DNA from: Candidatus Poribacteria bacterium
GTDB taxonomy: Bacteria > Poribacteria > WGA-4E > PCPOR2b
DNA length: 64,000 bases
NCBI GenBank assembly: GCA_963665285.1
Contig: OY762266.1
Location: forward strand, 3,584,001 to 3,648,000
Reading direction: 5' to 3'
How positions within the stretch are numbered: position 1 is the stretch's first letter; the number at the start of each line of letters is the position of its first letter. The notes under the pieces were generated by a model that was not told the DNA's origin, searched no databases, and saw only the letters and a program-made list of their open reading frames with translations. Positions 13,590 to 13,899 of the stretch are shown here, piece after piece. The position numbers and the translations under genes are program-made.

Positions 13590-13653
13590 AACCGTCCCGT
13601 CTCGTTTGATACTTTTTTCTTATTTTGAGACTAACGTAAAGGAGGTGAATTAC

Positions 13654-13899
13654 ATGGGACTCGATTGGAAACCACGTCATCGGGATATGCTTATTGGCGG
13701 ATACTGGTGGTTGGCACGAGTTAGTGACAAGGCACGTGCCAAACTGAACGGTACTATCGGTGAATACATCTACCCGTGACCGCAGGACAAAAAGTTCCTG
13801 GAGGAACATAAGGTAGATGCTGATGAGTTCGTTGAGATGGTGAAAAGTAACCCGTCAGACGATGATATGATTGCCGCGATGCAAAAACTCAATCGGTAG
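13654..13899 (+). CDS. DUF5069-like small protein (81 aa) with an in-frame TGA at codon 42; candidate selenoprotein
   Basis: SD AAGGAGGTG; MGLDWKPRHRDMLIGGYWWLARVSDKARAKLNGTIGEYIYP-TGA-PQDKKFLEEHKVDADEFVEMVKSNPSDDDMIAAMQKLNR; family-like sequence continues past the TGA. Confidence 0.7.

Follow-up and report, generated by a model that had tools for sequence, protein, structure and literature searches.

The prototype of the bacterial selenoprotein gene with an intragenic selenocysteine insertion sequence (SECIS) is fdhF of E. coli. The protein family DUF5069 (PF16798) contains no member with a known function, so that none can be transferred from it to a new relative; PDB 3omd ("unknown function protein from Leptospirillum rubarum", 145 aa) is the only solved relative of the protein considered here, and the literature indexed under "3OMD" concerns unrelated chemicals only. 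The gene described here was found in a 64,000-nucleotide stretch (the window, C1:3584001-3648000) of the genome of a Candidatus Poribacteria bacterium, a sponge symbiont, whose assembly is a single contig of 6.26 Mb. At window positions 13654-13899, an earlier note had proposed a DUF5069-like selenoprotein of 81 residues, with an in-frame TGA at the family's conserved cysteine and a SECIS-like hairpin behind it. This is very probably a genuine DUF5069 selenoprotein gene, in which UGA42 is predicted to be read as selenocysteine (Sec); it is the combination of a frame selected across a conserved UGA, a hairpin coupled to that UGA, and Sec machinery in the genome that leads to the selenocysteine reading.

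The coding sequence (13654..13899, plus strand) starts with ATG at 13654-13656, runs through 41 sense codons to an in-frame TGA at 13777..13779 (plus strand, codon 42) and continues through 39 more to the TAG at 13897-13899; its translation is a short DUF5069 protein of 81 residues, with the predicted Sec (U42) in the motif YIYP-U-PQD. A Shine-Dalgarno sequence, AAGGAGGTG (13639..13647, plus strand, as read from the sequence), stands 6 nt 5' of the ATG, and a AGGAGGTGA core is found upstream of the ATG in most of 61 orthologs. All of the coordinates and codon counts first given for these elements agree with the sequence, as does the remark that the open reading frame (ORF) track halts on the TGA; in the ORF list made with translation table 11, the frame 13429..13779 ends there.

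The profile search which the earlier note had proposed matched the read-through product to PF16798 with an E-value of 4e-16 (59.8 bits; cut-off 27), residues 7-78 corresponding to profile positions 4-75 of 133 with the TGA inside the match; the genomic frame with its one TGA scored 54.4 bits. The full 133-position domain is not covered, as the protein ends at residue 81 and represents the N-terminal half, a short form; no family of NCBIfam release 20.0 matched the read-through product at E <= 1. In the match to 3omd (E 4.6e-14), the Cys of that protein aligns opposite U42. An AlphaFold2 model computed from a 97-sequence alignment (mean predicted local distance difference test score 87.6) has helices at residues 20-32, 43-51, 56-65 and 69-80, U42 directly preceding the second of them, and packs both sides of the TGA into one domain that matches 3omd, both by Foldseek (E 3.5e-4, TMq 0.86, root-mean-square deviation (rmsd) 1.0) and by VIA-align against 3omd_B (Z 13.2, rmsd 1.2 A over 79 residues; 3omd residues 4-82). 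The consensus of the same alignment, WLARxIDKARAxxAGTxGEYxYPCPxD, fits the family motif given in the earlier note; residues present in at least 90% of the sequences are R22, D25, K26, R28, D45 and D69, all charged and arranged around the motif. Apart from the U42 site, the 81-residue chain has no Cys.

An exhaustive HMMER search of 1.84 billion representatives returned 337 relatives at E <= 1e-3. Among 148 aligned sequences of the best 150 of these (two rows were unaligned), the site of U42 is filled by Cys in 121, by Ser in 12, by Trp in one and by some other amino acid in seven, and seven end at residue 41. The claim that the TGA takes the place of a conserved Cys therefore holds for 3omd and for these 121 representatives; as a statement on DUF5069 at large it was too broad, since Ser occupies the site in 12 of the 148 and a tandem paralog in the same genome has Gly there (YLYGDDSG). 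The N-terminal half of DUF5069 is found in fusion proteins as well; 24 long proteins were scanned, and the partners were Cupin_2 in three and DUF2249, a methyltransferase, CO_deh_flav_C and DLH in one each.

Conservation of the TGA was followed through the phylum, the Poribacteria families compared bearing labels such as f4 and f8; the order-level set comprises 61 genomes from 4 families and 15 genera. In 61/61 of these, the ortholog (61-99% identity) has exactly one TGA, and in all 61 extracted sequences this TGA is codon 42. At phylum level, 168 of 176 genomes have a match at E <= 1e-14, with one TGA in all 150 matches listed; further one-TGA genomes are seven rows of f4 as well as G067, G068 and G077, which brings the TGA form to 159 Poribacteria genomes in total (G075 and G113 are outside the count). 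A TGA peculiar to one assembly, which would have spoken for a mutation or an error, is thus not what is seen; TGC or TGT occurs in one family only, f8, where the frame is open without a stop in 7/8 genomes and codon 42 is TGC (6) or TGT (1). The frame is kept on both sides in all seven f8 orthologs inspected, which is the TGA/Cys pairing that had been looked for among homologs, and these Cys-form genomes nonetheless carry selB.

Over the 61 orthologs, the mean pN/pS (ratio of nonsynonymous to synonymous differences per site) is 0.18 for codons 2-41 and 0.25 after the TGA, at a pS of 0.64-0.71 (0.64 after the TGA), that is, with synonymous sites close to saturation. In the 38 codons past the TGA, in-frame stops are found in 0/61 orthologs, and in 61/61 for each of the two other frames. 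Comparison of the codons demonstrates purifying selection before as well as after the TGA.

The genome has the complete apparatus for selenocysteine, for which the earlier note had asked: selA (602 bits), selB (366 bits) and tRNA-Sec (76.6 bits) form one cluster at C1:1112918-1116458, selD (372 bits) has an in-frame TGA of its own, and all four score above curated cut-offs. At the same time, of 1625 open frames with 400 codons or more, 507 (31%) end in TGA, and several orthologs of the DUF5069 gene have it as their final stop, which indicates that the genetic code is not reassigned. Across the phylum, selB is found in 167/176 genomes; completeness is 80-83% for the three TGA-form genomes that lack a selB match, and family f5 has neither selB nor the DUF5069 gene in 3/3 genomes. 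A long-arm tRNA of the ordinary kind probably explains a weak, sub-threshold match to the tRNA-Sec model within the window (5009-5093, minus strand; 37.3 bits, gathering score 47).

The predicted minimal SECIS, GUUCC-UGGA-GGAAC (13794..13807, plus strand), overlies the codons K47-F-L-E-E-H53 and is supported by comparative evidence. It was placed correctly in the first description, with stem strands at 13794-13798 and 13803-13807 and the loop at 13799-13802: a hairpin of 14 nt with a 5-bp stem and a 4-nt loop, located 14 nt downstream of the UGA, its loop beginning 19 nt past it. The consensus rules for bacterial SECIS (bSECIS) elements, as quoted in a recent review, are a loop of 3-9 nt, a stem of at least 4 bp, a G among the first two loop nucleotides with G or U coming next, and a spacing of 16-37 nt (PMC13188914). 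Loop, stem and spacing comply with them (UGGA with G at position 2 and then G, 5 bp, 19 nt), so that the apical G-containing loop "about 20 nt" after the UGA does have the geometry of the bacterial model, and its presence is coupled to the TGA. A loop of the type NG[G/U]N on at least five pairs is found in 69/69 Poribacteria TGA forms, at a spacing of 19 nt, or of 22 nt in four sequences with a one-codon insertion; together with a second, marine clade described below, 79/79 TGA forms carry the hairpin as against 0/7 Cys forms, in which the codons at this place have drifted to FLEK, FLER, WLQK, FLQR and FLKQ.

The signature within the TGA forms is a freezing of codons. Over the 61 orthologs, F-L-E-E is written TTC (61/61), CTG (60/61), GAG (61/61) and GAA (60/61), and the same amino acids use mixed codons elsewhere in the gene. 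Synonymous-codon entropy averages 1.27 bits over 38 conserved columns outside the hairpin and is 0.06 bits in the four hairpin columns, and out of 39 runs of four conserved columns only one, the hairpin itself, is as low. When 56 distinct TGA forms were aligned with MAFFT, the five core pairs proved standard in 280/280 cells; the changes in the core are three one-sided ones, all to G-U wobble, and one double change from G-C to A-U, and RNAalifold predicts the same five pairs. If the standard bacterial mechanism applies, SelB carrying Sec-tRNA(Sec) would bind GUUCC-UGGA-GGAAC while the UGA sits in the ribosomal A site, and its delivery of Sec would outcompete release factor 2 at UGA42. A scan for promoters and terminators, which returned nothing specific to the DUF5069 gene, flagged the reverse complement of the hairpin as terminator-like on the minus strand; this is regarded as incidental.

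Sec forms of the protein are not restricted to Poribacteria. A divergent truncated cluster, P0157 (56% identical), led to 12 metagenome loci, of which ten close ones make up the figures given here for the marine clade; two weak loci (58% identity over 26 residues) were left out. These ten marine-metagenome loci have the TGA at the homologous position, read through to 89-93 residues and contain YVYP-U-GADERFLEG. Their hairpin, GCGCUUCC-UGGA-GGGAGCG, is in the homologous place with the same loop and spacing in 10/10 TGA forms; compared with that of the Poribacteria, its fifth pair is C-G for G-C and one pair is U-G, and a 60-nt stretch with it has a folding energy of -20 to -30 kcal/mol. A quick maximum-likelihood tree was computed from 89 short forms over 84 columns, with position 42 masked. 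Its outgroups are without exception Cys forms, and one clade with a Shimodaira-Hasegawa-like approximate likelihood-ratio (SH-aLRT) support of 100 unites, as a polytomy, P0010, the marine Sec clade and, from the Poribacteria, the Sec forms together with the Cys forms of f8. As judged from this tree, Sec arose within a Cys family; the base of the tree, a polytomy, fits both a reversion from Sec and a retained ancestral Cys in f8.

In public databases the Poribacteria gene is present in two faulty forms, as fragments ending ...YIYP and as 81-residue entries with W42; the latter are best read as gene calls made by metagenome pipelines under a table-4-style code, in which TGA means Trp.

A UPF0182 membrane-protein gene (10404-13589) ends 64 nt before the DUF5069 gene; downstream of the latter follow two WD40-repeat genes (835 and 859 aa; 14054-19218) and two further ORFs before pheA (24181-25275), which in this genome lies 10 kb downstream. 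UPF0182 is found upstream in 35/35 long loci of f1-f3 and, with a 90-residue query, in 21/31 short loci. In the f2 genome G038 (L204:3802-4467), a gene for a Uma2-family endonuclease lies between UPF0182 and the selenoprotein gene, and it is this insertion that accounts for UPF0182 not being seen in the short flanks of three f2 loci. The pheA gene adjoins the DUF5069 gene in other orders (7/7 loci) and in f2 and f4; since it directly follows there, the WD40/ORF stretch looks like an insertion in this genus. In family f4, a 408-aa fusion of Glutaredoxin and Pyr_redox_2 domains (Grx-TrxB) is encoded upstream on the same strand, 22-27 nt away, in 5/5 loci. The counterpart in the present genome (C1:3403253-3404483), 8 kb from a peroxiredoxin selenoprotein gene, has its Grx and TrxB parts in two frames that overlap by a few bases, which may be two overlapping genes or a frameshift. 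Synteny offers no firm functional link for the DUF5069 gene. Elsewhere in the window (7245-10205, plus strand), a protein of 986 aa joins Peptidase_MA_2 and PD40/DPPIV beta-propeller repeats to a C-terminal Omp85 barrel, an unusual outer-membrane architecture.

The stop codon of the DUF5069 gene is abutted by the palindrome GGAACGCAGATCTGCGTTCC (13899..13918, no strand assigned), a dispersed element resembling repetitive extragenic palindromic (REP) sequences, with 38 exact copies in the genome; possibly it serves as a transcript-end hairpin for the gene. Copies of GGAACGCAGATCTGCGTTCC are usually flanked by gtag...ctac, and many otherwise unrelated RNA contigs of run X7 converge on it. Contigs over the gene are present in sponge metatranscriptome assemblies from three studies; two contigs, belonging to two of the studies, bridge the TGA (run X5, 13637-13895; run X6, 13551-13981), with no difference at 13777-13779.

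The reading of this UGA as Sec is a prediction, and a number of points weigh against it. The hairpin folds weakly as a single sequence: the 14 nt alone reach -4.2 kcal/mol, short of the minimum free energy of -7.5 kcal/mol or lower demanded by the energy rule for bSECIS elements in the same review (PMC13188914); with its flanks it reaches -5.7 kcal/mol (z -2.08; 10 of 200 shuffles fold equally well), and the 45 nt from the UGA reach -9.2 kcal/mol, with a z of only -1.31 (23/200). The value of -7.5 kcal/mol is attained only if non-conserved lower and flanking pairs are counted, and the two lower stem pairs, found in 32 and 25 of 56 sequences, are absent in the window's own genus. The standing of the hairpin thus rests on the comparative data. 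There, covariation is sparse because the core hardly varies, and F-L-E-E is conserved as protein too, so that the protein may explain part of the conservation; the frozen third positions argue against protein-only conservation. With Ser at the site in 12/148 representatives, the residue is not essential throughout the family, and the RNA contigs, which may include DNA carry-over and are silent on translation, are weak evidence that gives neither expression level nor transcript ends. Were the TGA a true stop, a peptide of 41 residues would result, with 39 downstream codons untranslated or kept for some other reason; so the frame ends under table 11, so it ends (...YIYP) in public gene calls (P0015, P0016, P0024 and others), and TGA is a normal stop in this genome. 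This is nevertheless very improbable, as the Pfam and 3omd matches cross the TGA, pN/pS downstream is 0.25 with in-frame stops in 0/61 orthologs versus 61/61 in each other frame, the Cys-codon orthologs are continuous over 84-86 residues and the AlphaFold2 model places both halves in one 3omd-like domain. There is just as little to be said for an ordinary amino acid (Trp, Cys or Gly) inserted at the UGA by a near-cognate tRNA or under a reassigned code: W does stand at the site in the database entries P0002-P0009, P0011 and P0019, but as TGA closes 31% of long frames there is no reassignment of the code, a bSECIS-type hairpin accompanies the TGA in 79/79 cases and the Cys forms in 0/7, and the Sec machinery is complete, f5 lacking selB and the gene together. 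A sequencing error or a recent nonsense mutation in a pseudogene, for which nothing speaks beyond the stop itself, has a practically negligible probability; it is refuted by the same TGA in independent assemblies, 159 species-level genomes and 10 contigs of the divergent clade, and the bridging RNA contigs are unchanged at the site. The earlier proposal of an 81-aa Sec-containing protein of DUF5069 type, as a prediction from sequence comparison, has frame, Cys alignment, hairpin and machinery all in agreement with it.

As to what such a selenoprotein does, it is quite possibly a cytoplasmic single-selenol redox protein: the selenol of U42 would pair with a partner thiol or substrate in a short-lived selenenylsulfide and would be recycled by a reductase of thioredoxin or glutaredoxin type. 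This is the best guess because U42 caps the N-terminus of a helix, no Cys stands elsewhere in the chain, Sec and Cys exchange at the site, and Grx-TrxB is the neighbour in f4; Sec/Cys exchange at one site is typical of redox-active residues. It is weakened by several observations: the Grx-TrxB adjacency is confined to f4, with the counterpart in this genome 194 kb away; pheA and UPF0182, the neighbours that are conserved more widely, give no hint of redox chemistry; and no fold relative beyond 3omd was found by Foldseek or VIA-align, the next match (Z 3.5, TetR-like helices) being taken as noise. Possible too, if somewhat doubtful, is a selenoprotein without thiol-disulfide redox activity, the Sec of which would bind a soft metal or metalloid or carry sulfur or selenium as persulfide or perselenide. 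A lone Sec/Cys, unaccompanied by a resolving Cys, would suit such a carrier, as would the conserved charged residues around the motif and the fusions to Cupin_2 (3/24), DUF2249 and methyltransferase, none of them a classical redox partner; the P-C-P motif, moreover, resembles the CPxP of TusA-type sulfur carriers. On the other hand, neither TusA/SirA nor a metal-binding family matched in Pfam at E <= 1 and no such fold is among the 50 structural matches listed (Z >= 2), a list that may miss a TusA/SirA relative, and the f4 Grx-TrxB neighbour points to redox recycling. A wider proposal, rather more speculative and on balance unlikely, is that the short DUF5069 proteins form a new class of small selenol redox carriers with a fold unrelated to thioredoxin and recycled by the Grx-TrxB fusion; this class would belong to the near-universal core of the Poribacteria, its Sec form would also occur in free-living marine bacteria, and Sec would be preferred there over Cys as the active residue.

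The genome encodes other selenoproteins. A genome-wide scan for TGA followed by a hairpin, restricted to perfect stems with 4-nt loops and hence not a survey of the full selenoproteome, gave 283 candidates. A CC/GG apex is present in 15, and 12 of those look non-coding by eye. In selD the hairpin is CAGUCC-AGUU-GGACUG, with the loop 17 nt past the UGA. A gene for an AhpC/TSA-type peroxiredoxin outside the window (C1:3412225-3412833, minus strand) matches Pfam across its in-frame TGA (E 4.1e-19), which occupies the peroxidatic position (FWRGAY-U-PKD); the gene has the hairpin GUUCUCC-AGUU-GGAGAAU, whose loop is 16 nt past the UGA. Likewise outside the window, a gene for a secreted thioredoxin-like protein (C1:4486539-4487099, plus strand) has the TGA in a CxxC position (W-U-G-F-C; Thioredoxin_2 E 2.1e-15); the apex of its hairpin, GGC-UGGAU-GCC, was read by eye within a longer predicted stem. 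Finally, a Trx7/PDZ gene with two TGA codons (NF041199, 379 bits) has GACGAACA-GGU-UGUUCGUC.

As a selenoprotein, DUF5069/PF16798 is absent from the searchable literature, from the NCBIfam models and from the BSepDB and deep-Sep supplements, as the earlier note, which was aware of no such form, had supposed; "Poribacteria" does not occur in these two supplements. Nor does PF16798 appear in the text or table of the 2026 selenoprotein review (PMC13188914). The BSepDB inventory comprises 111 families and subfamilies. If the prediction is true, an uncatalogued family is added to the bacterial selenoproteome, and current annotation shortens the gene or puts Trp at the site in essentially every Poribacteria genome. 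The exchange of Sec and Cys would mark one residue of a domain with a crystal structure (3omd), and thereby a specific residue and its chemistry, as the likely working site. As a compact natural minimal SECIS of 14 nt with a clear comparative signature, the hairpin may also be useful for refining bSECIS models, which miss some elements.

Set beside what has been described before, this is a new selenoprotein family of a well-known gene kind, not a new mechanism. With genes of the bSECIS type such as E. coli fdhF it shares the in-frame UGA, the small downstream stem-loop, the need for selA, selB, selC and selD and the existence of Cys homologs; it differs in that its Poribacteria hairpin stands at the minimal end (5 bp, -4 to -6 kcal/mol) and in that the family is absent from searchable catalogues. 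The four other selenoprotein genes of the genome have the same SECIS placement, and three of the four a similar apex (YCC/GGC-NG[G/U]N(N)-GGR/GCC), but they encode known redox folds of catalogued families, whereas the DUF5069 fold is otherwise seen only in 3omd. To 3omd and PF16798 the protein is related by 40-44% identity, the common motif ...DKARA...G(T)xGEYxYP-C-PxD and the same fold, the difference being Sec in place of Cys and the restriction to the N-terminal half of the domain (81 residues). Related too are the Cys-type short DUF5069 proteins, among them the f8 orthologs of 84-86 aa and P0010, P0013, P0014 and P0023, the last of which has a cluster-mate named DUF5069 of Chloroflexota; they belong to the same length class, have the motif, 51-65% identity and, in the class, the same pheA neighbourhood, and are set apart by TGC or TGT for TGA, by the lack of the hairpin (0/7) and by relaxed codons for FLEE.

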